From Bacteroidota bacterium (lineage in GTDB: Bacteria > Bacteroidota > Ignavibacteria > UBA10030 > UBA6906): 64,000 bases of DNA. The position numbers and the translations under genes were made by a program. The DNA is taken from the NCBI GenBank assembly GCA_019637975.1, contig JAHBUR010000004.1, positions 32,209-96,208 on the forward strand, read 5' to 3'. The notes under the pieces were generated by a model. The model saw only the letters and a program-made list of their open reading frames with translations, searched no databases and was not told the DNA's origin. Of the stretch, positions 7,101 to 40,209 are shown one piece after another. Numbering within the stretch: position 1 is the stretch's first letter; each line of letters starts with the position of its first letter.

Positions 7101-10100
7101 ACCTAATCCGCCATTTTTCTCTCTCATTTGAGAGATGGCAACGAAAGACATGGTTTCTTAAGCTATTGAGTGTTTCGCTTAGTGAACGAACGGGCAGAGC
7201 TCGAAGGACCAGCTTGTTGTTATCAGAGAACGCAAAACTGAACATTCCGTCAATGAATTTCCAATTGAAGTATGATCGACGTTGACCCGGAGTGATTAGT
7301 ATATCATCGACCGAAACCCTGCATATGACCAGAGTAGCTGTCTCAAAAATATACGAGCGATTGTCCTCTGAAATCCTGATGAGGCATGCTTCGCCCTTGT
7401 CAATACCAAACTCCGCATTGAGCTTTCCGTTGCGATTGAGGTTCTGAGGAATGCCCTGACAGAGACTGAGTTTCACGAGTTTCTTCTCTGTATCGACACC
7501 CATGACACGAAAGCCACGCACGAGATTCCGATTAGCCCGGGATTGATAGTACTGGTAATCGCGTCGTGATACAACATGTGAGATATCTCTATAGGGCACC
7601 AAGAAAGTAATATCGCTATCGTAATTCCAAGACTTAATCCGAAGCCCGTCTTTTCCAGCAGACTGTACTCTCCCCCAGACGTTGAAAAACTCATTCTTCG
7701 TCTTCTCTTTTAGAATCGAGTCTATTCCAGGGACGGTGGTGCTATCAGCAACTGGAACGAGATCTCCATGGAGCTTTGGAATACCGGATGAACAACTCAT
7801 CCAAATTCGCTCGGCTCGGACATCAATCCGCGCCCGCGTTCGATAGTGTGAACCGCCGCCAACTAGTCTTCCGTTCATAGATCGGATCCCTGGAGGCGTG
7901 ACTCTCACCAGCCCGTCTTCTGATATCACAAGTCCTTTCAGTGGCTCTTCTTGTGCAAGGATGCTCCTAATGCCGCCACTTTGGACTTGGAGATTATGCA
8001 CAAGAAGAACGCGGTTCAGCTCGCGACCAGGTTTAAGACTCACCGCATCGCCTGCATAAAAATGAGTACGCCCGAAATCCTCGAAGCATTGACGCGCTAT
8101 CCGCAAGCATATGCCGGGTTTTCGTTCGATCCAAACGTATCGGTCATATCCCTTTTCCTGATAACCAATGTAGATGCCGTTTGCCGGCAGCTTCAGCCGC
8201 TCAACTGACTGTATAGTTTCTTCGGGACTATCGAGAAGTAGAGAAAACTCCATTTCTCCTCTTTTTTCATTTTTCCCAACGTAACGAGCCTCCACGACAG
8301 TATCGCACGGAAAATCCTGAATCGTGATTTTCGGATTGTACGCAAGTTGGTCTTCATTAATTACGAAACTTTCGCGCGTCGTCCAATGCGATAGATTCAA
8401 CCAATTTCTCCAGTCATCTCTAGACGAACCGATGACTTTGAGATGGTACCAATCACCCACTTCGAATTTACGGAATTCATCTATGAGGGGGATAACCAGA
8501 GGGACACTCTCTCGGTAGCCTATGATCTTGGCTCGAAGCTTCAGAACCTCATCAATCTCCCCAAGATGCAACAGCATCTCGGAGTCGACCTTATCCCACT
8601 CTAAGATTGCAGGAACTGGCCGTTCCTCAAATTGAGGCTCGATGATTTCTACTGTTTGTGGTTTATCGGACCAAGGTTTTGAAGGCTGAGCAATAATGGT
8701 GACGCGAGCTTCAAGTTCGAACTTCCCATGCAGATCATAGCGATAAGGTGCTATCCGTCTAAGCTTCAACACACACTCACCCTGCTGCTGCCAAGGGCGA
8801 TTGTCCCTTTGGTTCACTTGAGGCAAGAGCCATTGGGCCTCGAACGTCTCGCCACATTTTGGGGGATAGGCTGTGAGCAGCGGATGATAGTTGAATTCAT
8901 CCTTGTCCACCATTCTCTCCGCGCTAAGCTTACAAAGAGTTCCAGGACGTACAAAATGGTCGGGATAGTCTGATTCAGGTAAGGAAGTATGTACTTCAAA
9001 AAGTAGATCATTCTTGTCGAGATTAACAAAGGTCAGTTTGAAAGGAGCCGTTCCAAAAAACATGGCCAATTTTTCAGCGCCCCAAACAGGTTTGCGCCGC
9101 TTGAAAGAGAAGATAACCTTTGCACCTTCGGCAGGTCGAACAAGGCAAATCTTGATCCGCTCTTGTCGTTCCTCCAGGAGTTTAATTACTTCAAGCGTAT
9201 TCTGCAAATTTGCCCAAGAAACCTCTTCCCTTGAAACCTCGAATGGCAAATGTCCACACAACACTCGAACATTGCCTTCCAGATTGATTGCATCAAGAGC
9301 GACTTCCATTTCGAGGTTATCCCTCACGTTGAGCAAAACTTCTTTTAGCGAAGCTATGAGCGCTCTCTTTGAGAGAATCAGGTCACCCGCCTGTTCGCGA
9401 CCAGCGACCATGAACAAATGAAGTTGGCCTAGATTACCTAGCTTTTCCGTTTGTGTTTCACCGATCTCAGGCTCCGACCAGATCCCTTTGGGATAGCTTG
9501 CGCCTAAGTCGACAATGAACTTCTCGCCAGAGTTCGTTTCGCACAACCGTTCGATGCTTCCCAGCACACAATCCCCAACACAAATTTGTTTGTTGCTTTG
9601 AGGTTCTGTGTTAAGATGTAAGTTCTTGATTTTGTCAGCTATGGCTGAGGGGAAATCGGCTCTATTCGTCACTACACGCCACACATTCCGCAAACCCATG
9701 ACCGGAGATGCAAAAACCACATTCCGATGGTGATGCAAACTTTCTTGAGTGAGTAGTTTAACAGTGCCACCTTCAGCAGTGCCTACCAAGGTTTCCTCGA
9801 AATCAAGCTGGGCTAGGGCACTTGCGAGTCTCGAACTGACTGCCTCGGACTCGCCAGTGCGATCCGATTGCCCTTCTGGGGGAAATGGCAAATGATGTTC
9901 ATTGGCGAATTGGGACGCACGTAGCAAGCTCAGCCACGCGAACTTGGACAGTTCCGCATCTGTAAGCTCTGTTTCGCCACGCAACTCTTCATATAGATAA
10001 TACGCAGCTTCTCCGCTCAGGTGCTGACGCACATATTTGTTGAGTCCCCCATAGAGAAATCCGTAATGAGAGTTGGTACGCTCATCTTGGAGCATGCACC

Positions 10101-17040: not shown

Positions 17041-17294
17041 CTGGGTGTAGGTCGCAAGACTGAATAACGAGGCGTAAGTAGGACGCCTACAAGAGCCATT
17101 CGCTCGGAGACCCAGACCTGTCCCTTGCCACTTTTCAAGATTCCATCCGTGGTGAAATGCGGGAATGGCGCGCTGAACTCGGATTTTTGATTTCTCAGTT
17201 AGTACAGGACGAAGTCGTTTCATTTCAATGTTTCTAAGATCGTAGAACAAAGAAGTTCCTCAGGCAGCAGACCAAATACGCTATCGTGTGCAGT

Positions 17295-17512
17295 TCCTGT
17301 TCCGGGCACAGCCCAAGGGGTATCGTTCACGCGGTACCCCTTGCTGTTTTGGATTGATGCAGTGAGCACGATCCCTTCAAAAACAGAACCGCCCCGCACG
17401 TCTGCGGGGCGCTTCATTTTGCTCTTTGCATTGTACTTCTCATGTTATTTCTAACATCAGTTATACTCCGCAATCGCGGCGGTGTGCACACGGAAGTCGC
17501 CGCGCTGTATCT
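17295..17512. repeat. copy A of a ~218-bp direct repeat (the second copy is at 26920..27135)
   Basis: About 93% identical to copy B. It contains a minus-sense hairpin plus T-run, ccccgcagacgtgcgggg + ttctgtttttg, so it looks like a 3'UTR/terminator module. Confidence 0.8.
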
Positions 17513-17570
17513 ACCTGACCTGCCCCCAATAAACCGTTCCAAGTGTTATCTTGGATAAAAGGAGGCAGCA

Positions 17571-17872: not shown

Positions 17873-18704
17873 GTGGAAGAGATTGTGGAGGCACTTCACG
17901 TATCCGAACGACGAGCGTGTCGCGTGTTAGAGCAGCCGCGAACAACACAACGTCATCAGGCGTCACGCCGAAGCGATGAGGAACCGTTGCGGAAACGGAT
18001 TGTTGCCTTGGCGTGTCTGTACGGACGCTATGGGTATCGGCGAGTAACGGTGTTACTGAGGGACGAAGGCTGGCGAGTGAATCACAAGCGCGTTGAACGC
18101 CTATGGCGCCAGGAAGGCTTAAAAGTGCCGCAACGACAAGCCCAAACGGAGACGGTTGTGGTTCAATGATGGGTCATGCATACGGTTACGTCCGTTGTAT
18201 CGGAACCACGTGTGGAGCTACGATTTTGTTGCAGATCGTACGAGTGATGGCAAGCCGATACGGATATTGAACATTCTAGATGAGTATTCACGCGAGTGTT
18301 TGAAGATTCGCATCGACAGACAGATGAAAGCAGTAGATGTGATTTATGAATTGTCGGAACTGTTTGTTGAACGCGGAGTACCGGATTACCTCCGCTCTGA
18401 TAACGGGTCGGAATTTGCAGCGGCGATAGTCCGTGATTGGCTGAAACGACTCGGCGTCAAGACACTCTTTATCGAACCAGGGAGTCCATGGGAGAACGGC
18501 TACATCGAATCATTCAACGGAAAAATGAGAGATGAATTATTGAATGGAGAAATCTCTGATACTATTCTGGAGGCACGGGTGATCACAGAACGATGGAGGA
18601 AGGCATACAACACGGTTCGACCACACAGTTCATTGGGATACCGTCCACCGGCGCCAGAAGTACACCAATATCTTAGCTTGCCAGTGGCTGAGCAAATTAA
18701 CTAA
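17873..18704 (+). pseudogene. IS3-family transposase OrfB (DDE integrase core) disrupted by a frameshift near 18156-18169
   Basis: Two frames, 17873..18169 and 18156..18704, together encode a typical OrfB (YRNHVWSYDFV...DNGSEF...PWENGYIESFNGKMRDE). The expected ...QRQAKRRRLWFNDGS junction is broken. Confidence 0.7.
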
Positions 18705-26905: not shown

Positions 26906-26919
26906 GCTTTGTGGACGGG

Positions 26920-27135
26920 TCCTGTTCCGGGCACAGCCCAAGGGGTATCGTTCACGCGGTACCCCTTGCTGTTTTGGATTGACGCAGCGAGCACGATCCC
27001 TCCAAAAACAGAAATGCCCCGCACGTCTGCGGGGCATCTTATTTTGTTCTTTGCATTGTACTTCTCATGTTATCTCTAACATCAGATACTCCGCAATCGC
27101 GGCGGTGTGCACACGGAAGTCGCCGCGCTGTATCT
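26920..27135. repeat. copy B of the ~218-bp direct repeat (3'UTR/terminator module of the 27151..27732 gene)
   Basis: Aligns end to end with 17295..17512. It has the same minus-sense hairpin, gccccgcagacgtgcggggc + tttctgtttttgg. Confidence 0.8.
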
Positions 27136-27150
27136 TCCCTACCAGCGGAT

Positions 27151-27732: not shown

Positions 27733-27847
27733 TTAGTGGTTGATGTATGATTTAGGTATTCACTCCGGCCTGAGTGTTTTCTTCGTCGTCGTGCAATGCC
27801 CGGAACCACTCACTACTCCGGGCGTATCTCTCCGGTGTACTTGTCTC

Positions 27848-27925
27848 AAAGAACATTTCTTGCTACTTGTCCGCTACTTCCTTGCTATCTTGTCGCTACT
27901 TGCTTGCTACCTTGTTGCCTTTCCG
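27848..27925. repeat. CTTGCTAC(C)TTGT short tandem repeats
   Basis: cttgctacttgtccgctacttccttgctatcttgtcgctacttgcttgctaccttgttgcc. Confidence 0.6.
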
Positions 27926-28099
27926 TTGCTTTTTGGTATTGACTGTTGACGATCTCTACAGATCGGTTACACAGATGGCGTGCCAAAACAATTCGTTGCT
28001 GAAGTGTAGCAAGAAAATTGAGGATGGGGATCTGAGAGAGGTAAAAATGGGGATGTACTTCTTTCCTCAGAGGAAAATTTTGCACCGGCGGCTCGTGAC

Positions 28100-28545
28100 C
28101 GGGGCGTGTGTACACGCGGCTCTCGAAACACACCCCCCGCCTCCGTTTCACTTCGGCGCGGCAGGCCTCCGTCTCCCCTCTCGCAAACGCTCACGCCAAC
28201 ACACAGAGGGGAGTGTGTTCACCGGATTTTCTTTACCGCGCTCAATCCCATTCCCCTCTTGCCTGCCCGCCGTCTTTGTGGCGGGAGAGGGCTTGCCCCG
28301 ACGGAGCGCTTTTGGCGCAGTCGGGGTGTCCCGACGAAGCACGCTTTTGCGTAGTCGGACGGGGTGTGACAATCGCATCTCAGATTCAGCGCTCAACAAC
28401 TACTCCCCTCTTTGTGCTGGCATGTGTGCTGGGGAGAGGGCTTGCCCCGACGGAGCCGCTTTTTGGCGCAGTCGGGGTGTCCCGATGATCCCGACTTGTC
28501 GGGAGAATCGGGACGGGGTGTGTTCCGCGCCCACTTGCAGCAATC
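28100..28545. repeat. hairpin-rich region with two ~100-bp direct repeat units (CCCGAC/GTCGGG stems)
   Basis: Units at ~28290 and ~28433 share ggagagggcttgccccgacggagc(c)gcttttggcgcagtcggggtgtcccga... Perfect palindrome gtcggggtgtcccgac. A ctcccctct...agaggggag hairpin at ~28160. Confidence 0.6.
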
Positions 28546-28685
28546 AACCCACCGGGGATTGGCAATCAGGACAACAAGAAGAAAAAAGTCCCACGAGCAG
28601 CCCCGGCAAAACCGATTTGGCGGTCTGTAACGGCGCAGGGAGTGTCGTATTTGCCGTGACAGCCGAGAGTAAGCAGTACGTTTCT

Positions 28686-29138
28686 TCAGGGTTGGCGTGA
28701 GCGTTTTGTCTTTGATTCTGCGTGCCCCAGCACTTCACGGCATAGCTGGACAAATTCTGCCAGGCTGAGATCACTCTTTGCATCGTTCACGCGCCATGAG
28801 CAGATCCTAAAGTTCGGTGCATCCATACCATCGTCCACGTGATCGACGGTTGGCAGGTCGCCAAAGTTCTTCTTATACGCTCTTCCGCCAGCTTGAGCTG
28901 CATCATTATCGTAACGGGAAATGAGTTCCCATTTGAGTGGAAGACCAGTGTACGCATCCACACCATTGCTCGCTGTGACAGCTGCGTGAATGGCTTTCTT
29001 GTAACTCCCAACCTTTGCAGTAGTATTCCCGCGCTTTCTGTCCCGGCGGACATGGGCATTCGCTTTTGCATGCAACCATTTCTGGTATACACGCTCGGAG
29101 CACTTGCCATGAAGAAAGAAAGGTAAGGTGTACTTCAT
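28686..29138 (-). CDS. small HNH-like endonuclease candidate (150 aa)
   Basis: TVDHVDDGMDAPNFRICSWRVNDAKSDL fits a degenerate HNH pattern (D-H...N-x3-C...N-xx-K). Last gene of the cluster headed by the PtuA-like ATPase. Confidence 0.35.
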   Translation of the reverse strand: MKYTLPFFLHGKCSERVYQKWLHAKANAHVRRDRKRGNTTAKVGSYKKAIHAAVTASNGVDAYTGLPLKWELISRYDNDAAQAGGRAYKKNFGDLPTVDHVDDGMDAPNFRICSWRVNDAKSDLSLAEFVQLCREVLGHAESKTKRSRQP

Positions 29139-30063: not shown

Positions 30064-31767
30064 CTAGAACAGCTCCTCCGCCCGCTCTGCGAAGAAACCG
30101 CCGGGCCATTTCTGTACGAAGTCTCCCTCCGGCGTGATATCTAATGGAATCACCGCAGAACCATTGGCTCCGGGCTGAACATAAAGAACCTGAACATCAT
30201 TCGGGGTTATGTCGGGAACTTTTTTCTCGGAGCTTTCCCTGATCCTTCGCAGAATCCTCAGTATCAAATGCTCACTATGCGTCTCCAAGATAAACGTGTT
30301 CTTCCGTTCACCCAAAGCAGACTCAATGAACACATCGCCGAGTTCGGCTTGCAAGGCCGGGTGAAGATGAATTTCCGGCTGTTCGATGGCAATAGTCTTC
30401 TTCTCATTTGCAAACGCATAAACGAGAACTGGCAATGCTTGGCTTATACCTATTCCCACGTCACGATGGCTGACGGGTGTGTCTGTGCGCAGGTCAATCA
30501 ACACGAGGTCTCTGATTTGGTCGGGTGATGTTTGAGCAAGTTTTCTTGCCAACTCTTGTCCTCGCGAAGGCTCACGAAAGAATGCTTCAATTTCTTCTTT
30601 CGTGGCCTTTTTCATTTCCACTTGAGAGAGATCGATTCTCTCAAGCAGACGGTCATTGTACTCGTCAAACATCGCATCGAGTTCTTCAGAGAGGTAGGTA
30701 TCAGCGATGAGATCTCTCACGACAAGGGCGTAGGGGGTTGAGAGACGGTCGGGGCCAAGCCAATTGTTGACCATGTTGCGAACTTCAAAATTGCGACGAA
30801 CAATGTCCCAAGCGTATCCTCCGCCGGCTTGCCAGTTGGCATCGAGTTCCTTGGAGAAGGCAAGATGTCGCTCCGGATAGGAACGTAACGGCCCGAGGTA
30901 AACGATAGACGAAAGCCAGGATTCGAGCTCTTTTGTAGAAGACAACACCATATCTGAGAGCTTGCCCGGAAGGAACAGATCGATTGCCGCATTGATATCG
31001 TCTGTACGCGTACTGCGCCCAACTGGAATTATTCTGTCGGGGCCTTCCTCCGGTCCCTCCCCGGCAAACCCCAGTTGGGCAGGAAGTATCCCTTTGAAGA
31101 AGACGCCGGCGCTTGCCATGAACTCAACAAGATGGGCCTGCACTTGCTTCACGTCATGATCACTTGTCACAGTTACCGTAGTTGACATAAGAACAAGTGC
31201 TTGTATCAACTCCACTATCAATGGATGCGAAGCGATGAGGTTAAGTTTGTACATGCCATTCTTCGGACTGCTGACTTGCGCAATATCCTTGCCGTCGACT
31301 GCAATTGAAAAGGATTCCACGCGCGGAATACCGACCGGCACAAGGTTTCCCGTTGGAACTCTGATCGTTACAGGTTTTCCTGTACGTGGATCCGTGGATT
31401 CCTTTTCCACCATTTCTTCCTTGTGCTCCAAACCAATCAATATCTCGAATCGTATTGTGGAACCCGCGTGAAAGACGGAGAACGATTCGGGGGCAATCAT
31501 CTCAAAACAGAGTGAGAGTCGCCTCATTGAATCAGTTCTATGGATGTACTGTCTGAAACCTCCCAGATCGACGGCATCACCGCCTACCTGCGTGTGGCTG
31601 ATATCAAGCTTTCCAGTCTTGGTTGCTTCATTTGCCAGAAGCAGGGAGTGGATAATACTCGACTTTCCCGAACTGTTCGCCCCAAAAATAAGCGTGAGCG
31701 GACGAATGGGGATGGTCTGCGTTTCTGCAAACGCTTTGAAGTTGCCGAGGCGGAGGGATTTGATCAT
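30064..31767 (-). CDS. ABC/SMC-like AAA_15/AAA_21 ATPase with a DUF3696-like C-terminus (PtuA-like, Septu-type)
   Basis: Walker A LTLIFGANSSGKSSI. Walker B/D-loop KKTIAIEQPEIHLHPALQ. H-loop ILETHSEHL. C-terminal PNDVQVLYVQPG...AVIPLDITPEGDFVQKWPGGFF, as I recall for DUF3696. Confidence 0.6.
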   Translation of the reverse strand: MIKSLRLGNFKAFAETQTIPIRPLTLIFGANSSGKSSIIHSLLLANEATKTGKLDISHTQVGGDAVDLGGFRQYIHRTDSMRRLSLCFEMIAPESFSVFHAGSTIRFEILIGLEHKEEMVEKESTDPRTGKPVTIRVPTGNLVPVGIPRVESFSIAVDGKDIAQVSSPKNGMYKLNLIASHPLIVELIQALVLMSTTVTVTSDHDVKQVQAHLVEFMASAGVFFKGILPAQLGFAGEGPEEGPDRIIPVGRSTRTDDINAAIDLFLPGKLSDMVLSSTKELESWLSSIVYLGPLRSYPERHLAFSKELDANWQAGGGYAWDIVRRNFEVRNMVNNWLGPDRLSTPYALVVRDLIADTYLSEELDAMFDEYNDRLLERIDLSQVEMKKATKEEIEAFFREPSRGQELARKLAQTSPDQIRDLVLIDLRTDTPVSHRDVGIGISQALPVLVYAFANEKKTIAIEQPEIHLHPALQAELGDVFIESALGERKNTFILETHSEHLILRILRRIRESSEKKVPDITPNDVQVLYVQPGANGSAVIPLDITPEGDFVQKWPGGFFAERAEELF

Positions 31768-31818
31768 TGCGGATTGCGGATTATGGATTTCGGATTGTGG
31801 TTGTTGGGTTCTGTGGTT

Positions 31819-31866
31819 TCGACCTCACCCCCGTCCCCTCTCCTCGGAGGAGAGGGGTGGGTTGTG
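31819..31866. repeat. GC-rich compound palindrome (REP/MITE-like; CGACCTC-CCCC family)
   Basis: cgacctcacccccgtcccctctcctcggaggagaggggtgggttgtg. The inner CCCCTCTCCT/AGGAGAGGGG stem is perfect. Confidence 0.6.
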
Positions 31867-31910
31867 CTCAGTTATTCTGCCCCTGAAGGCAGTACACATT
31901 CGTTTCATGT

Positions 31911-31997
31911 CGAACTCATCCCCCGCCCCCTTCTCTTTCAAAGAGAAGGGGAGGTTTGTGCGCGGATTCGATAAGTCCCTCTCTTCACAAGAGAGGG
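31911..31997. repeat. two further GC-rich palindromic elements of the same family
   Basis: cgaactcatcccccgcccccttctctttcaaagagaagggggaggtttgtg and ccctctcttcacaagagaggg. A half copy, cgaactcatcccccgcccccttctctt, lies at 32511..32537. Confidence 0.6.
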
Positions 31998-32042
31998 ATT
32001 TAGGGTGAGTTCCATCGGGTGTGAGTTGATTCAAGAAACACC

Positions 32043-32495
32043 TCAATTATTCTGCCCCGGCAACCCCTTGGGATAGAGCAGCACAACATCCGGCGTTTGC
32101 GGGGTCTGTTTGATTTTCCGTTCAGCATCTTTTCTGTCACGTGCTATTGCTGCTTCGATTTTCTTTCTCAACTCAGGATGCGCGTCCAAACTCTCGTTGC
32201 GTTCTTCAAGCTTCTCCATTACTGCCCAATACGTTTTGTTGTAGTGAGGATAGCATTTCTCCTCAAGCTCCAGCGAGAGTTGCTCGCCTAACTTCGGACC
32301 CTCATTGTCCAACACCCAATGGTTCTCAATATCTGCACGGAGCGTGACGAGGACCGGCGACCTGAGCCTGATGATGAGCTTGCGTGAGATAGGGCCGACT
32401 TCATCAAAGAGCCACGCGGCTTCATCTTTGTTCTTTGCGCTGCAAACGCTGACCGTTCCGTCAGCCCAGCGGTAGGCGTAGGTGGGCATGGGCAA
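32043..32495 (-). CDS. hypothetical protein (150 aa)
   Basis: ORF flanked on both sides by cgaactcatcccccgcccccttctctt elements. Confidence 0.45.
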   Translation of the reverse strand: MPMPTYAYRWADGTVSVCSAKNKDEAAWLFDEVGPISRKLIIRLRSPVLVTLRADIENHWVLDNEGPKLGEQLSLELEEKCYPHYNKTYWAVMEKLEERNESLDAHPELRKKIEAAIARDRKDAERKIKQTPQTPDVVLLYPKGLPGQNN

Positions 32496-32558
32496 CCTCT
32501 CACTTTTTGTTATCCTCTTCCGAACTCATCCCCCGCCCCCTTCTCTTAGACTCAATGA

Positions 32559-34553
32559 CTACTCAGAAACATGAAAGAACCGTCTGAGAAGTGATTCTAT
32601 CCGAAATTCGACAGCGTTCTGCCATTGCTTTACGTACCATCCCCAAACAAGCCCAGCGACGCCAGATACCCAAACAATGCCGCCAATGATTCGGGCCCAT
32701 ATTCCCGTGATTATCGTCCCAATCATAAAAGGACACACTAGCAGGACAACAATCGAAAAGATGAAAAAGACTTTGCCGACTATTAGAGCAATTGTCTTGG
32801 CACGTCCGCGTAGGGCGAGCATGAGTTCTCGTTGCCTAGTTTCGGATTCTTCTAGACGAACTTGAACTTGTGTCTTCTCAGCGTGGACCGCCGCAATTTC
32901 CTGTGAAGCTTCACCTCTTATTTTCTCAATTTTCGCTTCCGCTTCACTTGCATATGATTCCTTTACACGGTTGACAACCTCTGTTAGAGTAGTCGAATCA
33001 GGCTCGACATCTTCATCAAATTGGGAAAGAAGATTCTCCGTTAATTCGCTTGCAATTACCGCGACCATTTCATCATCGTTGATTCGGTTTTCCGTGCGCA
33101 TGTTTTGTAGATGCTTGACAAACAAATCCCACGTTCTTTGCGATGGCACCAGAGCTGCAGAGCATAACGCAATTAGTTCATTGAGCTTGAGGTCTGCAAT
33201 CGCAGTAGGTTTTTTAAGCCAGGCTATGCTTGAAAGAGCCGAACTGTGAATAACTGGGTAAACACCGATTTGGCCTTGACCCCTGAACCATTCTTTTACA
33301 TTCTTAACTAATAGCCCAGTAGTTGTTACAAATACCGCCTTTGCTGAGTCGTATGATTGTGGATGACGCCCCTTCCGCACTGTGAGCACAGACGCAACAC
33401 AATCTACATCGTGAACTACCCGTGGTTCGGTGTCACTTTCTGCTGGGCGTTTCAATCTTCGTGTTAGGTCAGCCTCATCAAGAGTGAATTTGTCAATATG
33501 GTCCGGCACTGGCACTATTCGAAACCCCAAGTCTCGAAGGTGTGAACGAAGCATCGCTGACTCTTCACGTACATCGCTGGGCGAGTAGCGTCGAGCAAGA
33601 AGGTGCCTTGTAATCGGATAAGCGCGAAGTGTTTCAATTCCTTTCTGGGTTGCCAAATGGCGCTCATACACATGAAGAATTCTCCTGATTTCCTCCACCG
33701 TCGTATCGAAGACTGCCAAAGAAACGTTGGTAACTTTTAGTAAATCTAGGGATTCTCTTGCGGCCACTTTTGCTGCGTCGCCTGTAAGTCCCAATGCATT
33801 AAGTAGAAACGCCGTATCAAAATATGCGGTCAGATCTTTGAATCTGCTTTGCGCTGTTGATATGTCCTTGAGTAGTAAGGCATTTTGAAGGACATATCCT
33901 TCAAGCACGCGTCGAACAATCCGCCGCAATTCTTGATTTGCAAGGCACTCAGCCAGTACGAACCTAGCTACGATCCTCAATTCTTTCGTCCCTAGTGAAC
34001 GAAATTGGTCTTGGAAGACTGGGCCGCCGCCCTCATCTGTGGAGGGATCAAGTAGTAATTCTACGTGAAATTGTGAGATGAATTCGAAGAGAAGAGCGAG
34101 TGCATCGTCCTCGTTTTGCAACTTTAAGTTGTGTTGTTGCGCATGATGCATGAGAGCTTTTGCGATGACTGCATGCTCGGTTTGAATTTCACTCAACCGT
34201 TTGCTAATATCAGGCGTCGTTGTTCGTGATACTTTATCACGAAAGTAACGACCACCTTCTCGTCGGACAAGCTTGCGTTTGCTAGCCCGTGTCAAAAGCA
34301 TTTGCATCGACGTAGTCGGAATTTTCAGACCGTAACGTTCAGTCAGTAGGTTTCTCATGTCTTGCGCTGAAAAGTCATCATACGGAAAGCATATTATGCA
34401 ATCGGCGACGAATGGAAGAAGCATATCGAGGTGATCTATCCCCGAGTCATAGTTTGCCTTCAGCAATGCAAGAGTGGCCAAGCCTTTGGCAAGTTTGTGT
34501 GATGACAGCACAGACACTGAAGCGTTTTTCATGTTTCCTGCAACTCCTCTCAA
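32559..34553 (-). CDS. hypothetical 657-664-aa protein with a C-terminal transmembrane anchor, encoded directly downstream of hsdS
   Basis: Large, mostly helical ORF with a C-terminal hydrophobic stretch (IALIVGKVFFIFSIVVLLVCPFMIGTIITGIWARIIGGIVWVSGVAGLVWGW). An alternative start is at 34532. Confidence 0.55.
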   Translation of the reverse strand: MRGVAGNMKNASVSVLSSHKLAKGLATLALLKANYDSGIDHLDMLLPFVADCIICFPYDDFSAQDMRNLLTERYGLKIPTTSMQMLLTRASKRKLVRREGGRYFRDKVSRTTTPDISKRLSEIQTEHAVIAKALMHHAQQHNLKLQNEDDALALLFEFISQFHVELLLDPSTDEGGGPVFQDQFRSLGTKELRIVARFVLAECLANQELRRIVRRVLEGYVLQNALLLKDISTAQSRFKDLTAYFDTAFLLNALGLTGDAAKVAARESLDLLKVTNVSLAVFDTTVEEIRRILHVYERHLATQKGIETLRAYPITRHLLARRYSPSDVREESAMLRSHLRDLGFRIVPVPDHIDKFTLDEADLTRRLKRPAESDTEPRVVHDVDCVASVLTVRKGRHPQSYDSAKAVFVTTTGLLVKNVKEWFRGQGQIGVYPVIHSSALSSIAWLKKPTAIADLKLNELIALCSAALVPSQRTWDLFVKHLQNMRTENRINDDEMVAVIASELTENLLSQFDEDVEPDSTTLTEVVNRVKESYASEAEAKIEKIRGEASQEIAAVHAEKTQVQVRLEESETRQRELMLALRGRAKTIALIVGKVFFIFSIVVLLVCPFMIGTIITGIWARIIGGIVWVSGVAGLVWGWYVKQWQNAVEFRIESLLRRFFHVSE

Positions 34554-34560
34554 GAAGTCC

Positions 34561-35706
34561 TTAGAAATTTCGTGTTTCCCTCCACCCCTTCGTCAACTCC
34601 CCCGTGAAGGCGCGGTGAAGCAGCACCGAAAACAACTTTTCCAGATTGTCTTTCGCTTCCGTCCTCGTGTACGCTTGCTCTTCAAGCATCTCCACTTGTT
34701 CCCCAAACTCCTTTTGTTTGTCAATCGACGGGACAAGAATTTCAATCGGGTAGATGCGGCTGCCCGAAATCAGTGGCTGGCCCGCACGACCGGCGTACTG
34801 GTTCAGGTTGGCCATTCTCAGCGCTTCAGTCAAGTATCTGTCGAGTAGCTCTTCGCTTTTCTCGGCAACATAGAGTGCATTATCTGTAACCCAGCATTTG
34901 GGCTTTGAGTAATACACCGCGCCGCAATAAACACCAACTCGACCGATAACGACGACAGGATTTTCGAACATAAACTCTGTATGATAGCCGTTGATACCAT
35001 TCCCGCCGTATACGGGGTAGCCTTCTGTTGGATGAAGACTTTTGACTGCGACGCCTTCTCCACTTTTGACTCTGATGAGATCACCCAGTTTCTTCTTAGT
35101 CAACCCCTTCTCATTCCTCACCGGGTCCCCAAACATCTTGTAGAACAGCGCCGGGAGAATCCGCTCGGCGAGTTGGTCTGCTTCGCGGCGGAGTTTGCGC
35201 AGCGCATCCGCCTGGTCGAGTATCTCCACTATCCGCCGCTGCTCGGGGGGCGAGGGGAGGGGAATTTTCAACGATGAATACTCAGTCCCGTTTATATTCG
35301 GCTGCCCAGCAACTCGCTTCTTACTCAGAACCCAATTACTATACGTTGACGACTGAGTGAAGTAGAAGACGTAGCGAGAGTCTGCAAGTGCCGGATTCAC
35401 TCGGAACCTGATCATGTACCCCGCAAAGATACTTCTCCCGTCCTTTGATGAATAGCGATACGACTTTCCTACGGTGTTGCCGCTTCTGGCAAACAACAAA
35501 TCTCCTTCTTCCAATATGAATTCGCTCTCATCATCTATATCCGCCTCTACTGCATCGTCAGGCCGAAGGTTCCCACTTTCGTCAATGTCAGTGATACGTA
35601 TGTATCTCGGCCGCAAACCCGACCAATCAATCGCTTTCGCGTTTGCTCCATATTGGGGGCCTAGAATTGATATTTTTCCAAGCGGAAGAGTCTGCCAGTC
35701 GCTCAT
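34561..35706 (-). CDS. hsdS: Type I restriction-modification specificity subunit
   Basis: Two target-recognition domains separated by the conserved IPLPSPPEQRRIVEILDQADALR spacer motif. The start overlaps the hsdM stop. Confidence 0.85.
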   Translation of the reverse strand: MSDWQTLPLGKISILGPQYGANAKAIDWSGLRPRYIRITDIDESGNLRPDDAVEADIDDESEFILEEGDLLFARSGNTVGKSYRYSSKDGRSIFAGYMIRFRVNPALADSRYVFYFTQSSTYSNWVLSKKRVAGQPNINGTEYSSLKIPLPSPPEQRRIVEILDQADALRKLRREADQLAERILPALFYKMFGDPVRNEKGLTKKKLGDLIRVKSGEGVAVKSLHPTEGYPVYGGNGINGYHTEFMFENPVVVIGRVGVYCGAVYYSKPKCWVTDNALYVAEKSEELLDRYLTEALRMANLNQYAGRAGQPLISGSRIYPIEILVPSIDKQKEFGEQVEMLEEQAYTRTEAKDNLEKLFSVLLHRAFTGELTKGWRETRNF

Positions 35707-37457
35707 TACTCCACATCCTTTAGTAACTTCCGCAAGGCTTCCGTTATTCGCTGTTCAACTCCTATTGTTTCACAAATCAGTTGAGTTGGATCATCAGTCG
35801 GCGCCTTCTCCGCCACCTGAGGCTTGTACCGTCCCGCCGCAAGGTTGTAATCCTCGGCGGCAATCCGCTCAACCGTTGCCCACCAGCATTTGGGTTCTTC
35901 GGTTCCGGCCTCGAGCAGTGTGCCTGCTTCAACTCCGGGTGGCGCGGTGAAGTCGGAGGATTTGTATGTCTTCCATTGCCTGAGCAGGTCGGGAATGTCG
36001 TTCAACTCCGGTGTTTCCACGCGTCCGCCTCCGCTGATCTTGTCGGGGTCGAAGCCGTCGTTTTTGATTTCGTAGAACCAGATTTTGCGTTGGTCGTTCG
36101 ACCTCCCCCCATCCCCCTCCTTCGTAAGGAGGGGGAGTGAGGGGGTGGTCGGCCTCCTAAACACCAGCACCCCCGTCTTCACCCCCGCATACGGCTTGAA
36201 GACTCCCGCCGGAAGAGAGACGATGGCGAGGAGGTTGTATTCTTCAATGAGCTTCCGGCGCAATTCAACGTGCGCGCTTGTCGAGCCGAAGAGGAGTCCT
36301 TCGGGTACCACAACGGCACAGCGGCCGCCGGGGGCAAGGGCTTCCATCATCACGCCCAAGAACAGCAGCTCGCTTTTCTTCGAGTTGGTGGGAAGGTCCT
36401 TGCGGATGGATTCCTTCGGCAGCACACCGGCAAACGGCGGGTTGGAGAGAATCACTTTGTACCTGCGCCGCAGGTCTTCGTCGGAAAGTCCGCCAAGGTC
36501 GGAGAGTGCATTCGCCCGCTTGATGTTTGCCCTCGGCACGCCGTGCAACACCATGTTCATCGTCGCAATGCGCATCATCTGGCGGCTGACATCGTTGCCG
36601 TAGAGTGAGGCCTCGAGCAATTCCCAGTTGGGGACTTTGTCGCCGTTACCCTTGCGGTAAGTCTGGAGCTTGGGTATCTGTTGCTTAAGCTTTTCGATGA
36701 AACCGGGGGGCAATTCAATGTCATCTCCGTTTCCTGCCCGTCCGTTAGGCGGGCAGTTCTTCTTCAATCCCATCTTCTCGCGATACTTGTCCACCATCCA
36801 CTCTTCGCCGTAAATAGGGACTTCAACCGGCTTCTCGGAGTACTTGGCAAGAACGTAATCGAGCGTGTCAATCAGGAAGCCCGCTGTGCCGCATGCCGGA
36901 TCATAGACTGTATCGCCGAAATCGGGCTCCACTAATTCCACCATCATAGCCCGTATCTGGCGCGGTGTGCGGAACTGTCCGTTGAGTGCCGACTGCCCGA
37001 GATGCGTCAGCAGGTACTCGAAGATGTCTCCCTTCTCATCAGGCCCCAACTTGCGGAAGTTGATGCCGTCAATTTCATCAATCACCTGCTTCAGCACGTT
37101 CGGGTCAACGATTTCAAGAACGGCGTCACGGAAGTACTCGGCAATGTGCGGCTCGTCTTTGAGAAGGCTGTTCGCCATATAGTTGAACACCTCATCGCGG
37201 ACGAACTTCACGAGCTTCTCGCCGCTGTTGAAGCGCCACTTGCTCCAGCGGTATCGCTCGGCCTGGTCCGGAAAGAGACGCCTGCCGTTGCCGCCGGCTA
37301 ACCTGCCCTGCAGTTCACGGGAGTTCTCTTCCTCATCCAACAGTTTCAAGTAGATGAGATAGGATATCTGTTCGATGTACGTGACCGGGTTGGTAACTCC
37401 TCCGGCCCACAGGACATCGGTAATGCGATCAAGTTTACGACGGATTTCGGTGTTCAT
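35706..37457 (-). CDS. hsdM: Type I R-M N6-adenine DNA methyltransferase subunit, carrying an in-frame palindromic-element insertion
   Basis: NPPF motif (ILSNPPFAG), SAM-binding DPACGTAGF and a typical HsdM N-terminal domain. The 36099..36152 element encodes TTPSLPLLTKEGDGGRSND. Confidence 0.85.
   Translation of the reverse strand: MNTEIRRKLDRITDVLWAGGVTNPVTYIEQISYLIYLKLLDEEENSRELQGRLAGGNGRRLFPDQAERYRWSKWRFNSGEKLVKFVRDEVFNYMANSLLKDEPHIAEYFRDAVLEIVDPNVLKQVIDEIDGINFRKLGPDEKGDIFEYLLTHLGQSALNGQFRTPRQIRAMMVELVEPDFGDTVYDPACGTAGFLIDTLDYVLAKYSEKPVEVPIYGEEWMVDKYREKMGLKKNCPPNGRAGNGDDIELPPGFIEKLKQQIPKLQTYRKGNGDKVPNWELLEASLYGNDVSRQMMRIATMNMVLHGVPRANIKRANALSDLGGLSDEDLRRRYKVILSNPPFAGVLPKESIRKDLPTNSKKSELLFLGVMMEALAPGGRCAVVVPEGLLFGSTSAHVELRRKLIEEYNLLAIVSLPAGVFKPYAGVKTGVLVFRRPTTPSLPLLTKEGDGGRSNDQRKIWFYEIKNDGFDPDKISGGGRVETPELNDIPDLLRQWKTYKSSDFTAPPGVEAGTLLEAGTEEPKCWWATVERIAAEDYNLAAGRYKPQVAEKAPTDDPTQLICETIGVEQRITEALRKLLKDVE
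36099..36152. repeat. 54-bp GC-rich compound palindrome inserted in-frame in hsdM
   Basis: cgacctccccccatccccctccttcgtaaggagggggagtgagggggtggtcgg; the length is a multiple of 3. Confidence 0.75.
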
Positions 37458-37909
37458 GTGTTGTGTTGGTTCATGGTTCTGCGACCTCCCCCAACCCCCT
37501 CCTTATGTAAGGAGGGGGCAAGGGGGTGGTCGGCATCTTGCAAAGCAGAATGCCTCTCAATGGCACGATGTATCTTGTCTACGACTGCATCTACATTCCC
37601 TTCAACTTCCTCGTTGCGAAATCTTAAAAACCAAATATGAAACTGCTCAATGTACTTCTGCCGGTCACGGTCAGACTCTTGAGCCTCCGGGCCGTCGTGG
37701 CTCTCACCGTCAACTTCGATTGCGAGCTTCAGTTCAGGACAATAGAAGTCCAGAACAAAGGCACCAACGCTGAATTGACGCCGGAACTTGAACCCTCCGA
37801 GTTGCCGTCCTTTCAATTGTTGCCAGAGAATCCGTTCGGTGGCGGTCATGTTGTTGCGCAGGAATCGCCGTTTGGTCTTCTCGGAGGATCTGTTGTAGAA
37901 CAGGGTCAC
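37454..37909 (-). CDS. DUF559/Vsr-like endonuclease-domain protein with a C-terminal extension created by a palindromic element
   Basis: ILWQQLKGRQLGGFKFRRQ...VLDFYCPELKLAIEVDGESH is typical of DUF559. The tail ...PLAPSLHKEGVGGGRRT is encoded by element 37483..37533. Overlaps the hsdR stop and the hsdM start by 4 nt each. Confidence 0.7.
   Translation of the reverse strand: MTLFYNRSSEKTKRRFLRNNMTATERILWQQLKGRQLGGFKFRRQFSVGAFVLDFYCPELKLAIEVDGESHDGPEAQESDRDRQKYIEQFHIWFLRFRNEEVEGNVDAVVDKIHRAIERHSALQDADHPLAPSLHKEGVGGGRRTMNQHNT
37483..37533. repeat. 51-bp GC-rich compound palindrome, same family as 36099..36152, inside coding sequence
   Basis: cgacctcccccaaccccctccttatgtaaggagggggcaagggggtggtcgg. 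Confidence 0.75.
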
Positions 37910-40209
37910 GCCGCGCTCTTCGTAAACACAGTTTCATTCAAATCATTCACAACGTCTCTCAAGCCTTGCTCGCCAAACAACTCGATGCCCAGACCTGCGG
38001 CGTTGAGTATCGAAAGGGGCGGCTTGAACAGATCCTCCATATCCACTTTGCCTTTGGCAATGCCACGGTTCTTGAGAAGGGAAAGATATTGCGCCTGTTC
38101 GGGGGTGAGCGACTTCGTTACCAGCCACGCCTGGAAGTTCTCGACAATCTCTTCCTCGCGGCTTTTCACTTTTGACCCGCTAAGAACTTCCTTGATGAAA
38201 TCAATGAGCGTCCCCGCAGGCTTGCGGTATGCCCGCCTCAGGTTATCCTCGTTGAAGTACATCCTTGGCTGGTTCAGCCGTTGAGAAAGTTCGTTTTCCT
38301 CCTCTTGTGTCAAGGCATAGCGTTCACGTTCATCCTCGTTTGCCGCTTCGGCCTGTCTGCGAATCTTCTGGAGAATCGGATCATCGGGCGCCGTTTTCTT
38401 GATGGTGTCTTCCCACGTGGACTGATACTCGCGACGATCAATACGTTCTCCATTGATGCCCACTTCGACATACTCAACGCTGTAGAGCCATTCGTCCTGA
38501 AGGCCAAGCTCAACCAGCTCACGCGCTGTCTTGGGTCGTGATGGAGTCCCTCCGCCGGAATAGCCCCCGGTACCTGTGAATACATCCGTGTCGCTGTCAT
38601 TGAAATACTGATGATTCCCGAAGAAGTCATAGATAACAAACTTCCGCTTGTCAATCTTCGGGCATGTTCTTGTGCCGCGTCCCCGCATTTGCTGGTAGAG
38701 AATCGGTGACCGGACACGGCGGCACATCACCAGATGAAGAATCTCGCGGCAATCGAAGCCGGTGTCCAACATTCCAACGCTGACGGCTACCATCGGGTAC
38801 GTTTCGTTCTTGAACTTGCGAATCAGATCGTCGGCGTTCGGTATGTCGCTGGTAATGACTTCGGCATAGCGGCCCTTGAGATCGGGATGAAGACTGTTCA
38901 GGATCGCCGTAAGTCGTGCGGCATGATTCTTTGTAATTGCAAAGACCACAGATTTCCCCGGACCGACCTGCTGTCCGGGGGCAAGCTCTTGGTAGTTCTG
39001 CCACGCGAGTCTGTCGAACTCTTCCATCATGAGACGGTTGGACTTTTCGTTCGTCCACTTCTTCTCAAATTCGGCGGGGTCGTAATGTTCTTCGTCGACA
39101 TCCGCACCCTTTGCAAGGATAACGGTAATCCCTTCAGCGAATTTGTATGGCGCCAGATAGCCGTCTTTGAAGGCGTCTTGAATTCTGAAAGAGAAGTCAG
39201 GCTCTTCGTTCTTACAGTTGTAGAACTGGAACGTATTCCGCTCAATGTACATTGCCGGAGTTGCGGTAAGTCCGATATGCAGAGCATCGAAATGGGTCAG
39301 GGCCGTTTGCCATGCGCCATAGATTGAGCGGTGGCACTCGTCCGCAACAACGACATCAAAGTACCCGCTCGAAAAATCCTGGTAGCGTGAGGTCATCGTC
39401 TGCAAGAGGCAAACGGTGATTTGTTGCTCCTGCCGCTCGCCACCCGATTTCAGCCAGTAGCTGCCGTGAGTGGTCAGCAAGTCCTGCAGCGCTTCAAGAG
39501 CCTGTTTCGCAAGCTGCTCCCGGTCAACAAGGAAGAGAATTCTCTCAGCGCGTCCGGCTTCGATCAGCCGTTTCAGGTACAGCGCGACAAGATCGGTCTT
39601 TCCGGTTCCGGTCGGAAGCTCAATAAGGAACCGTCGCTTACCAAGCTCCACAGCATGGTCAAGCGCTTGCATCGCCTCCTTCTGGTAGCTCCGAACCTCC
39701 CGTTGCTCACCCTGTCTGATGTAGAAATCCGGAATGGGAATCGTTGCGAGCGGCTTTCTCTCTTCACGAAGGTGGAGAATCTTTTCAAGATCCCTCTGCG
39801 AGAAAAACGAATTGACGATACGGGCATCATCATTCGTGTAGTCCCAGAAGTAGATCAGTTCGCCATTCGTCAGGAAAATGAACGGGGCATTCAGACTCTT
39901 GGCATAAGGCAGGGCCTGCTGCTTTGCAATGTAGGGGTGAAGGGCTTCTTTCTTCGCTTCGATAACGGCAAGCGGGCGACCGTTTTGCCCGCAAAGGACA
40001 TAGTCTGCAAAACCGGTTGGGTGTGCAGAGGAAAAATCCGCTGGCCTGGCAGCCGGTGTAGGGTTATAGCCCGGCGTCGGCTCCGCCACGTTCTGCGAGC
40101 CAAAAATCGGGACCTGAGTCCGAACTTGTTGCTTGTCGTTCAGGTCCCAACCAACAGCTTTGAGTTGTTCGTCTATCTTGATGCGAGCGTCTTGTTCAGA
40201 TGGAGACAT
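37906..40209 (-). CDS. hsdR: Type I restriction enzyme R subunit (SF2 helicase-nuclease), short form, 767 aa
   Basis: N-terminal PD-(D/E)xK-like VIEAKK. Helicase motif I ELPTGTGKT and motif II VVADECHRS. AGGGGA SD before the ATG. Confidence 0.8.
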   Translation of the reverse strand: MSPSEQDARIKIDEQLKAVGWDLNDKQQVRTQVPIFGSQNVAEPTPGYNPTPAARPADFSSAHPTGFADYVLCGQNGRPLAVIEAKKEALHPYIAKQQALPYAKSLNAPFIFLTNGELIYFWDYTNDDARIVNSFFSQRDLEKILHLREERKPLATIPIPDFYIRQGEQREVRSYQKEAMQALDHAVELGKRRFLIELPTGTGKTDLVALYLKRLIEAGRAERILFLVDREQLAKQALEALQDLLTTHGSYWLKSGGERQEQQITVCLLQTMTSRYQDFSSGYFDVVVADECHRSIYGAWQTALTHFDALHIGLTATPAMYIERNTFQFYNCKNEEPDFSFRIQDAFKDGYLAPYKFAEGITVILAKGADVDEEHYDPAEFEKKWTNEKSNRLMMEEFDRLAWQNYQELAPGQQVGPGKSVVFAITKNHAARLTAILNSLHPDLKGRYAEVITSDIPNADDLIRKFKNETYPMVAVSVGMLDTGFDCREILHLVMCRRVRSPILYQQMRGRGTRTCPKIDKRKFVIYDFFGNHQYFNDSDTDVFTGTGGYSGGGTPSRPKTARELVELGLQDEWLYSVEYVEVGINGERIDRREYQSTWEDTIKKTAPDDPILQKIRRQAEAANEDERERYALTQEEENELSQRLNQPRMYFNEDNLRRAYRKPAGTLIDFIKEVLSGSKVKSREEEIVENFQAWLVTKSLTPEQAQYLSLLKNRGIAKGKVDMEDLFKPPLSILNAAGLGIELFGEQGLRDVVNDLNETVFTKSAA

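Follow-up and report, generated by a model that had tools for sequence, protein, structure and literature searches.

The stretch of DNA analysed here, 64,000 nucleotides (nt) of contig JAHBUR010000004.1 from a Bacteroidota bacterium (hereafter the window), carries a type I restriction-modification operon in which two short G/C-rich palindromic elements, E1 and E2, lie within open reading frames (ORFs). The operon occupies the minus strand in the order hsdR-DUF559-hsdM-hsdS. The first gene, hsdR (37906–40209, 767 aa), displays the Pfam domains ResIII, EcoEI_R_C and HSDR_N and is followed by an ORF of 151 aa (37454–37909) whose Pfam match is DUF559, a Vsr-like endonuclease fold. The methyltransferase subunit is encoded by hsdM (35706–37457, 583 aa; Pfam HsdM_N and N6_Mtase), the start of which overlaps the DUF559 stop codon as ATGA, and hsdS (34561–35706, 381 aa; Pfam Methylase_S) completes the operon. 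HsdM is 100% identical to a protein from a metagenome-assembled genome (MAG) named 'Bacteroidetes bacterium'.

E1 is a two-armed ('palindromic') intrastrand triplex motif of 54 nt located within hsdM at 36099–36152 (CGACCTCCCCCCATCCCCCTCCTTCGTAAGGAGGGGGAGTGAGGGGGTGGTCGG), while E2, a two-armed motif of the same subfamily, occupies 51 nt at 37482–37532 in the C-terminal tail of the DUF559 ORF. The original prediction had described two near-identical palindromes at these positions. The palindromes are real and their arms are the same, although the wording was generous, with 46 of 55 aligned columns identical and different loops and linkers. E1 coincides exactly with hsdM codons 436–453, on the minus strand and in phase 0, and is translated as PTTPSLPLLTKEGDGGRS. 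The peptide encoded by E2, (A)DHPLAPSLHKEGVGGGR(R), corresponds to residues 126–143 of the DUF559 ORF, within its last 26 codons, and the hsdM ATG lies 24 nt downstream of the end of the element. Both elements are built on the stem CCCCCTCCTT. In E1 the inner hairpin, TCCCCCTCCTT-CGT-AAGGAGGGGGA at 36112–36136, is bordered by the block CCTCCCCC on the left and GGGGGTGG on the right; the hexamer CGACCA is found at the start of E1 and again just past it, and also belongs to the outer stem. When folded as DNA with a nearest-neighbour model, which considers Watson-Crick pairs only, either strand of E1 and E2 adopts a stable two-tier hairpin of −23 to −25 kcal/mol (z −5.4 to −6.7). Folding had been proposed as a check of the palindromes, and none of 200 shuffles reached a comparable stability. 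The inner hairpin pattern produced no chance match in 100 shuffles. No GTAG or CGTC tag was observed at the foot of E1, of E2 or of the family consensus.

The two elements display the organization of the 'intrastrand triplex motifs' described by Holder et al. 2015 (NAR, PMC4666352), in particular TM_ECO of E. coli, previously named BoxC or, by Maher's group, PIT elements. The ITxF criteria of that study define a pyrimidine, a purine and a reverse-Hoogsteen block on one strand, with stems of 6–15 nt and loops of 1–6 nt (PMC4666352). Both E1 and E2 contain the three consecutive blocks with an antiparallel third block (G.GC plus A.AT/T.AT) that characterize class II motifs. E1 is a perfect class II motif on both strands, at 36113–36148 on the plus strand and 36101–36135 on the minus strand; similarly, E2 contains a class II motif at 37496–37530 on the plus strand and at 37484–37517 on the minus strand. 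The predicted reverse-Hoogsteen pairing of E1 involves GGAGGGGG with GGGGGTGG on the plus strand and GGGGGAGG on the minus strand. Since a mirror block is present on both sides of the hairpin and the outer blocks pair with each other, E1 and E2 look like compound palindromes; the outer blocks are complementary to each other because each mirrors one of two complementary arms.

The relation between flanking block and stem was observed throughout a comparison set comprising 1.1 Mb of related loci from many phyla (loci numbered L001 onwards), which contains 237 homopyrimidine/homopurine hairpins. Nearly every copy of the E1/E2 inner hairpin is flanked by ACC[A/T]CCCCC 2–3 nt before the hairpin or by GGGGG[A/T]GGT 2–3 nt after it, usually on one side (130 family copies). 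This block is the mirror image of the adjacent hairpin arm and not its inverted complement, such that G stays G while A corresponds to A or T. In 180 of the 237 hairpins a mirror block matching 8/8 was identified within 0–6 nt (left only 86, right only 87, both sides 7), against a mean of 22 (maximum 32) when arms were swapped and 23 in a direct-repeat control. The rule holds for hairpins with very different arms, including CCCCTCTCC, CCTCCCCT, CCCTTCTC, TCTCCCCC and others, and among the hairpins of other subfamilies, which use 46 distinct arms, 64 of 87 possess a mirror block where 500 swaps gave a mean of 2.6 and a maximum of 8. The third-block base facing A positions was A in 143 cases and T in 126 among filter-passing units; G-to-G matches (1227/1227) are imposed by the same selection filter and provide no independent evidence. 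When only G positions were required to match, A or T was present at 275 of 292 A positions. The linker measures 2–3 nt in 157 of 187 units. The finder accepted stems of at least 8 nt without mismatch, a first loop of 3–7 nt and a second loop of 1–6 nt; the E1 register uses 7, and with its full 10–11-bp stem the first loop of E1 is 3–4 nt. Seven perfect triplex-type motifs were located in the window and none in 100 Markov simulations. The mirror code is the pairing code of an antiparallel purine-motif triple helix, in accordance with the purine-motif rule given in PMC4666352. An interpretation of the elements as G-quadruplexes or i-motifs was rejected, as a single unit contains too few G-runs per strand and nuclear magnetic resonance (NMR) of TM_ECO favoured triplex over quadruplex (PMC4666352).

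E1 had been predicted to represent an in-frame addition within a loop of HsdM, and comparison with the HsdM structure in PDB entry 5YBB bears this out. Where 5YBB presents RPGP-T-KEIW the window protein displays RRP-TTPSLPLLTKEGDGGRSNDQR-KIW, with the extra residues aligning to gaps. In an alignment of 28 relatives the segment sits between two invariant blocks, which most of the proteins connect through ~12 residues. In the AlphaFold model, the insert is positioned between predicted strands 428–434 and 458–463, with pLDDT below 50 at residues 444–453; the model, computed from 28 sequences, is poor (mean pLDDT 62) and was used only for the place of the insert between strands. The contents of this loop vary extensively among orthologues. 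L002, L141 and most of 54 metagenomic relatives contain a short Lys/Arg/Glu-rich loop with no motif. L015–L017 (77% identity) carry an element of the E1 subfamily at the same codon, read in another internal frame to give PYPPPYEGGG instead of PSLPLLTKEGDG; the peptide differs while the DNA element is the same, which shows that the DNA, and not the peptide, is conserved. L140 displays an intact TM_ECO-like motif of which L138 retains a decayed remnant, two further TM_ECO-like motifs occupy the loop in L159/L160/L163 and in L162/L172/L183, and L001 (84% identity) contains a 125-nt compound element of the GAACTCACCC subfamily. Other kinds of repeat are also found here, namely GTAG-tagged palindromes (GTAGGGGCACACGGCCGTGCGCCCC) resembling repetitive extragenic palindromes (REPs) in L146 and L189, four AATCCGC heptamers in L190 and AAAGCGG repeats in L179. 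Thus the HsdM loop, equivalent to 36090–36170 of the window, is a sink for several unrelated repeat classes.

Because orthologous loops are empty, or hold other subfamilies, a decayed remnant or REP-like palindromes, E1 is best read from these alignments as an insertion; the turn is permissive, and small structured repeats have accumulated there on many occasions. The original prediction had named, as the observation that would count against an insertion, orthologues containing the same peptide without any palindromic signature. In fact, the segment is absent from L002, L141 and most of the 54, and where orthologues have it (L015, L140, L163, L162 and L001) a palindromic or triplex signature comes with it, such that the proposal of dispersed, secondarily acquired repeats rather than ancestral coding sequence stands. 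The L015 element looks chimeric: hairpin and left block are E1-like, whereas the right block and linker (CAA-GGGTGAGGTC) match the L140-type hairpin perfectly but leave one mismatch with the hairpin of the element itself. These matches suggest that an older unit was overwritten by a newer one.

The organization at E2 differs from that at E1. The DUF559 ORF had been described as extended through E2, and the element lengths had been noted as multiples of three. The ORF does run through the element, but E2 is not inside the domain: the Pfam DUF559 domain stops at residue 117 and the tail formed by residues 118–151 passes through E2. Divisibility by three is irrelevant here, since E2 sits in the DUF559-hsdM junction and the ORF merely reads on through the intervening DNA until the next stop. 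Related units are located at the same junction in other lineages. The DUF559 tail of L015/L017 contains two tandem triplex units (PPAVPLKKGDEPPTVPLRNGDKGDAV), that of L138 contains a CCCCTTCTCCC unit with the stop TGA inside the third block GGGGGATGAGGG, and in L001 hsdM is preceded by a GAGTCTCAC-type unit; no junction motif is present where hsdR and hsdM are immediate neighbours (L002, L140, L159). The possibility that such elements are tolerated because C/T-only and A/G-only arms encode no stops was rejected, since whole units have 4.2 of 6 frames open, just as random segments of equal length do. E1 and E2 are each open in 4 of 6 frames, with stops arising from loops, linkers and the T in GGGTGAGG. 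Since the units are no more stop-free than random segments, the DUF559 extension requires no special explanation, and ORF extensions through such elements are probably incidental. E2 could in principle take part in translational coupling, a role that the observations do not support.

Three lineages (the window, L001 and L163) have one motif upstream of hsdM and another in the HsdM loop, ~1.3 kb apart. Within each lineage the two are members of one subfamily, but this subfamily differs from lineage to lineage, a pattern that suggests homogenisation between the two sites. The paired arrangement was discarded as a general feature, as it was observed only in these three loci; L140 and L159/L160 have the loop copy alone. 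More speculatively, the same-subfamily pair, which brackets the first 435 hsdM codons, could act as a recombination switch turning the type I restriction-modification system off and on.

The intergenic relatives listed in the original prediction are equally real. Hairpins with an all-pyrimidine 5' arm number five in the 64 kb (at 31835, 31927, 31976, 36112 and 37495) and, together with a half copy at 32521, all fall within 5.7 kb. The copy at 31819–31870 (minus strand; motif at 31823–31857) is from a different subfamily that closely resembles E. coli TM_ECO/BoxC. Its minus-strand sequence, CCCCTCTCCT-CCG-AGGAGAGGGG-AC-GGGGGTGAGG, is nearly that of TM_ECO. The copy is missing at the syntenic site of the relative L001, where it falls in a ~105-nt block that L001 lacks. 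The two copies noted at 31911 and 31977 are parts of a single 102-nt doublet (31911–32012), with motifs on the minus strand at 31915–31950 and on the plus strand at 31976–32010. The doublet consists of an outer mirror block, the hairpin 31927–31951, a 24-nt spacer, the hairpin 31976–31998 and a second outer mirror block; the outer blocks pair with each other (−30.5 kcal/mol, z −6.5) and the whole is kept (~92%) at the same intergenic site of L001. The copy noted at 32511 corresponds to 32521–32547 on the plus strand, 27 nt identical to 31911–31937, which comprise the outer block and the 5' hairpin arm without the 3' arm. The doublet is flanked on both sides, at 31875–31893 and 32040–32060, by the last ~17 nt of a gene of 150 aa (GGGGCAGAATAA[T/C]TGAG, stop included). 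L001 has a single copy of this gene end, and the missing ~105-nt block holds both the second copy and the 31819–31870 motif. The duplicated gene end is a local rearrangement beside a triplex motif, as reported for E. coli. At 31765–31800 an array of GCGGATT-like heptamers (ATTGCGGATTGCGGATTATGGATTTCGGATTGTGG) lies directly upstream of the start of an AAA_15 ATPase gene; the heptamer, as AATCCGC, is also the HsdM loop insert of L190.

Beyond the window, public collections were searched with the inner hairpin pattern CCCCCTCCTT-N3-5-AAGGAGGGGG, for which about two matches are estimated by chance in 596 Gb. At least 120 genome contigs from many phyla and 11 viral contigs contain the hairpin, flanked by blocks of the same kind, the hosts among the matches listed including Bacteroidota, Ignavibacteria/Kapabacteria, Patescibacteria, Chthonomonadaceae, Desulfuromonadales, Gammaproteobacteria, Chloroflexota, Zixibacteria and others. 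In the comparison set, 130 of the 237 hairpins are intergenic, against 13.5% expected at random, and 100 lie inside ORFs as defined by a crude ORF caller. Among intergenic copies, gaps between tandem or convergent genes are favoured and divergent gaps are avoided (60/28/9 for tandem/convergent/divergent, against a background of 307/98/102), while strand bias relative to transcription is not significant (26:18 intergenic, 22:13 coding). Nine of ten host ORFs analysed with Pfam have recognised domains, and in seven the copy lies within or between them: LigA (two loci), RNase R, PriA, an AcrB-family pump, a NACHT-TPR protein and a SpoIIE-TPR protein. The copy at a MetRS locus is upstream of the domain. 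The LigA of a Candidatus Nomurabacteria MAG (CALRAL010000002.1; L133, 4439–6583) contains three triplex-motif insertions in the region of the adenylation domain, and their peptides PPSPLQGEG, NPLLNKEGVGGG and SPLVKGG all align to gaps relative to E. coli LigA (2OWO). A fourth, unrelated insert of ~20 residues in the zinc-finger region of the same protein also aligns to a gap in 2OWO. Two loci of genome OW818688.1, L136 740–902 and L074 6784–6876, contain doublets of one subfamily whose 47-nt spacer is conserved, and at L136 a 70-nt hairpin-plus-spacer unit is tandemly repeated, resulting in three hairpins; this arrangement suggests slippage between identical hairpins.

Taken together, we consider it likely that E1 and E2 are two-armed copies of the G/C-rich intrastrand triplex motif repeat (BoxC/PIT/TM class), which spread by copying and whose peptides are passengers. 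The architecture, its covariation over 46 or more arm sequences and many phyla, the wide distribution, the turnover at orthologous sites and the in-frame position of E1 in a tight turn of HsdM are established by the comparisons above. The unit is a hairpin whose 5' arm consists only of pyrimidines and whose 3' arm consists only of purines, followed after a 2–3 nt linker by a third block that mirrors the purine arm and that, in single-stranded DNA, may lie antiparallel on it through reverse-Hoogsteen G.GC, A.AT and T.AT contacts. With a mirror block on both sides, E1 and E2 possess one motif per strand. The mirror code may be kept by selection on a triplex or hairpin fold of the DNA that forms transiently upon duplex opening, and this fold on the transient single strand could matter for persistence or copying of the element. 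New copies would arise, and older ones be replaced, through copying or conversion; for the chimeric L015 element the best fit is gene conversion, or re-insertion where a copy already existed. The Pro/Ser/Leu...Lys/Glu/Gly peptides would survive only where the protein tolerates them, such as a surface turn or a C-terminal tail, and where length and frame fit.

Several observations weigh against this interpretation. An ordinary Watson-Crick cruciform explains the two-armed local fold equally well, and it is the family-wide covariation that supports a triplex reading of the two-armed form. In vivo, the dimethyl sulfate footprint of TM_ECO gave no triplex signal, and in vitro the duplex wins once the complementary strand is present (PMC4666352). 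The E. coli class is 'always located intergenically' and is unlinked to transposons, phages and plasmids, which places a coding site outside the published behaviour (PMC4666352). The strict TM_ECO consensus has no match in the window: E1 and E2 fail it and the copy at 31823–31857 is close but outside the strict pattern. The net gain of the HsdM loop relative to element-free loops is ~10 codons and not 18, with boundaries of the insertion derived from the palindrome alone, and no mobilising enzyme, no target-site duplication visible by eye and no pair of cleanly filled and empty sites that would delimit the insertion exactly came to light. Numbers of coding copies are inflated by the crude ORF caller, the Pfam analysis covering ten long host ORFs.

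The possibility that the elements are conventional miniature inverted-repeat transposable elements (MITEs) of the Correia or RPE-1 kind, i.e. deletion derivatives of a DNA transposon whose terminal inverted repeats are bound by a transposase and whose insertion duplicates the target site, would account for dispersed copies that are present or absent at orthologous sites and sometimes nested or compound, and for their occurrence in viral contigs and many phyla; the pairing between outer blocks in E1 and E2 also resembles that of short terminal inverted repeats. The original prediction had compared the elements with Rickettsia palindromic elements (RPEs) and Correia-like MITEs, and the likeness stands as far as in-frame tolerance is concerned, which resembles that of RPEs and intragenic REPs (PMC3733652), while the proposed family and mechanism are not supported. 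The conserved relation is mirror and not inverted symmetry, and the block is one-sided in 173 of 180 units, such that most lack any terminal inverted repeats. The units span 35–54 nt (51–54 nt for E1 and E2, which have no long terminal repeats) in contrast with at least 100 nt in Correia/RPE-1 families, no target-site duplication was seen by eye at E1 (where the CGACCA repeat is ambiguous) or E2, and visual inspection of a doublet found twice in one genome (L074, L136) revealed no duplicated flank. The sole transposase among the scanned window ORFs, an IS3-type rve gene at ~18.2–18.7 kb, has no related ends, and the E. coli survey revealed no link to mobile elements (PMC4666352). We thus regard a MITE origin as unlikely. 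Mobilisation of single-stranded hairpins by a REP-associated tyrosine transposase (RAYT; an IS200/IS605-like Y1 enzyme), as in the REP/REPIN type, agrees with small size, hairpin-based singlets and inverted doublets, and with the fact that no target-site duplication was seen by eye. Preference for tandem and convergent gaps with avoidance of divergent ones has been reported for REPs, and intragenic REPs are known, including in DNA ligase (PMC3733652). GTAG-tagged REP-like palindromes even occupy the same HsdM loop in L146 and L189. However, the GTAG/CGTC tag is absent from the foot of E1, E2 and the consensus, REPs have no counterpart of the 8–9 nt mirror block covarying with the stem, and no Y1 transposase was detected among ~30 window ORFs in a Pfam scan that was not exhaustive, making a REP/REPIN assignment quite improbable.

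Selection might alternatively act on RNA, with the hairpin 24 nt before hsdM coupling its translation to that of DUF559 or stabilising the transcript, and E1 as a by-product. The hairpin is strong, the family prefers gene 3' ends, and a motif of the class is present at the DUF559-hsdM junction in four lineages (window, L015/L017, L138 and L001). In the first three, the DUF559 ORF crosses the motif and stops at the hsdM start or close to it; the L001 sequence ends early. These four lineages, however, use four different subfamilies, and operons without DUF559 (L002, L140, L159) have none. The absence of significant strand bias, the lack of an Rfam family match and a 51-nt read-through that is not unusual for units as open as random sequence also argue against an RNA element. 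Furthermore, purine-motif triplexes do not form in RNA (PMC4666352), and PIT elements, as far as the summary of earlier tests in PMC4666352 goes, displayed no promoter or terminator activity. A function at the RNA level is therefore given very little credence. An ancestral or convergent Pro/Gly-rich linker whose codons are palindromic by chance would agree with a loop that varies in length and composition across all HsdM relatives. Yet the same nucleotide motif is found in non-coding DNA of the window, in unrelated genes and in other phyla, L015 reads the element in another frame with conservation of DNA and not of peptide, and most orthologues lack the segment; this last explanation is effectively refuted. 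Each of the four alternatives is thus contradicted by one or more of the tests.

The triplex code, maintained across dozens of stems and many phyla, constitutes comparative evidence for selection on a three-strand fold that probing in vivo has failed to reveal. The class can be translated, adding loops or tails of 10–20 residues to real and even essential proteins, as REPs and RPEs do. The HsdM loop provides a natural series of states (empty, TM_ECO-like, E1-like, chimeric, decayed, compound and REP-occupied) that could reveal the mode of gain, replacement and loss. For annotation, motif-encoded segments should not be taken for conserved protein motifs. A bolder proposition, which we hold to be doubtful, is that the only conserved 'gene' of these elements is the three-strand pairing code and that, time and again, copies invade permissive sites and overwrite each other there, even in surface loops of essential proteins such as the CPR LigA with its three copies; if true, they would be a regular source of new Pro/Gly-rich protein loops.

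The neighbourhood of the elements looks like a defence island, with a CARF/RtcR-like gene, the type I restriction-modification operon and an AAA_15 NsnB/AriA-like ATPase, and farther out SMEK and TIR proteins. On the minus strand, an ORF of 2673 aa without Pfam match (4111–12132) adjoins a 985-aa protein with an N-terminal SMEK domain (12111–15068), and the two could form an uncharacterised defence or giant-protein locus. Direct repeats of ~240 nt at 17286–17523 and 26911–27146, 91–93% identical and 9.6 kb apart, bracket a segment that starts with the IS3-type transposase (rve domains, 18156–18704) and whose other products mostly have no Pfam match; it could be a module that is mobile or has been duplicated. 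The interval 28100–28560 holds a dense cluster of direct repeats and further GC-rich hairpins, where CCCCTCT...AGAGGGG arms lie 187 nt apart and TTTTGGCGCAGTCGGGGTGTCCCGA occurs twice, 151 nt apart. This cluster is inside a 308-aa ORF (27774–28700) with no Pfam match, which may be spurious.

A search of the whole window at Rfam gathering scores returned no match, and an E-value scan of 31500–37700 gave only sub-threshold generic hairpins such as Pab91 (29.6 bits against a gathering score of 71). Literature searches with raw sequence (GGAGAGGGG/CCCCTCTCC) retrieved only unrelated eukaryotic papers, and no report of in-frame coding insertions of the triplex-motif class was found in the literature. 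H-DNA requires just a mirror repeat within a duplex, and in E1 and E2 the outer block and adjacent arm form such a repeat on each side (CCTCCCCC..CCCCCTCC). In contrast to H-DNA, the complementary arm is on the same strand, so that a triplex can form within one strand, and the A/T wobble breaks the strict homopurine/homopyrimidine character. The Correia elements of Neisseria (CREE/NEMIS) are abundant, non-autonomous, form RNA hairpins and can alter the expression of neighbouring genes. They span 100–155 bp with 26-bp terminal inverted repeats, a TA target duplication, a site for integration host factor and promoter elements, and are essentially intergenic; none of these features of size, ends, duplication, binding site, promoters or habit is present in the elements described here. 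Palindromes of the RPE-1 type are reported by Ogata et al. in 2000 to lie in frame in many Rickettsia genes, at surface-exposed positions of host proteins that are still expressed. RPE-1 is about 100–150 bp long, A/T-rich, known only from Rickettsia and described as forming a Watson-Crick hairpin only, with no known mirror symmetry. Thus E1 shares with RPE-1 a palindromic repeat in frame in a protein gene and differs in size, composition, host range and symmetry. The length (~100–155 bp) and the ~20-bp terminal inverted repeats of Correia/RPE-1 MITEs contrast with 54 nt for E1, 51 nt for E2 and a predominantly one-sided block. Intragenic REPs, GTAG/CGTC-tagged and including Rickettsia RPE-4 and RPE-6, are in a minority of cases in frame, adding 20–30 residues, and often reside in replication and repair genes, e.g. 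DNA ligase and uvrA (Di Nocera et al. 2013, PMC3733652). They share with the present elements a small palindrome (20–40 nt), singlets and dimers, a mostly intergenic location between tandem or convergent genes and the in-frame minority. While REPs possess a GTAG/CGTC tag and a link to RAYTs, the elements here have no tag and a mirror block covarying with the stem.

BoxC/PIT/TM elements have been known in E. coli since the 1990s; the name BoxC reportedly goes back to Bachellier and PIT elements to Hoyne, Maher and colleagues in 2000. The elements described here share with this class the order of blocks, i.e. pyrimidine arm, loop, purine arm, a linker of ~3 nt and a mirror G/A/T block, as well as G/C-richness and a third block in which T may replace A (GGGAGAGGG / GGGTGAGGG). 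Both also occur singly and as inverted 'palindromic' pairs, show no strand bias and lie in locally unstable surroundings, TM_ECO being known to mark locally unstable intergenic DNA and to form such pairs (PMC4666352). The TM_ECO consensus is CCCTCNCCC-N3-6-GGGNGAGGG-N3-GGGNGAGGG, and oligonucleotides of TM_ECO form a triplex in vitro as observed by circular dichroism and NMR, with melting temperatures of 70–82 °C (PMC4666352). The oligonucleotide ...GGGGAGAGGG-TTA-GGGTGAGGGG is nearly the same as the window copy 31823–31857. In contrast, E1 and E2 use the stem CCCCCTCCTT, hosts comprise Bacteroidota and many other phyla beyond Proteobacteria and Cyanobacteria, and copies are also found in viral contigs although no link to mobile DNA was reported for E. 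coli. The exclusively intergenic location reported for TM_ECO is not shared by E1 at hsdM codons 436–453, nor by the LigA, RNase R, PriA and AcrB copies, all of which are translated in frame. Thus the kind of element is already known, and what is new is a translated, two-armed Bacteroidota variant together with comparative evidence for the triplex code.

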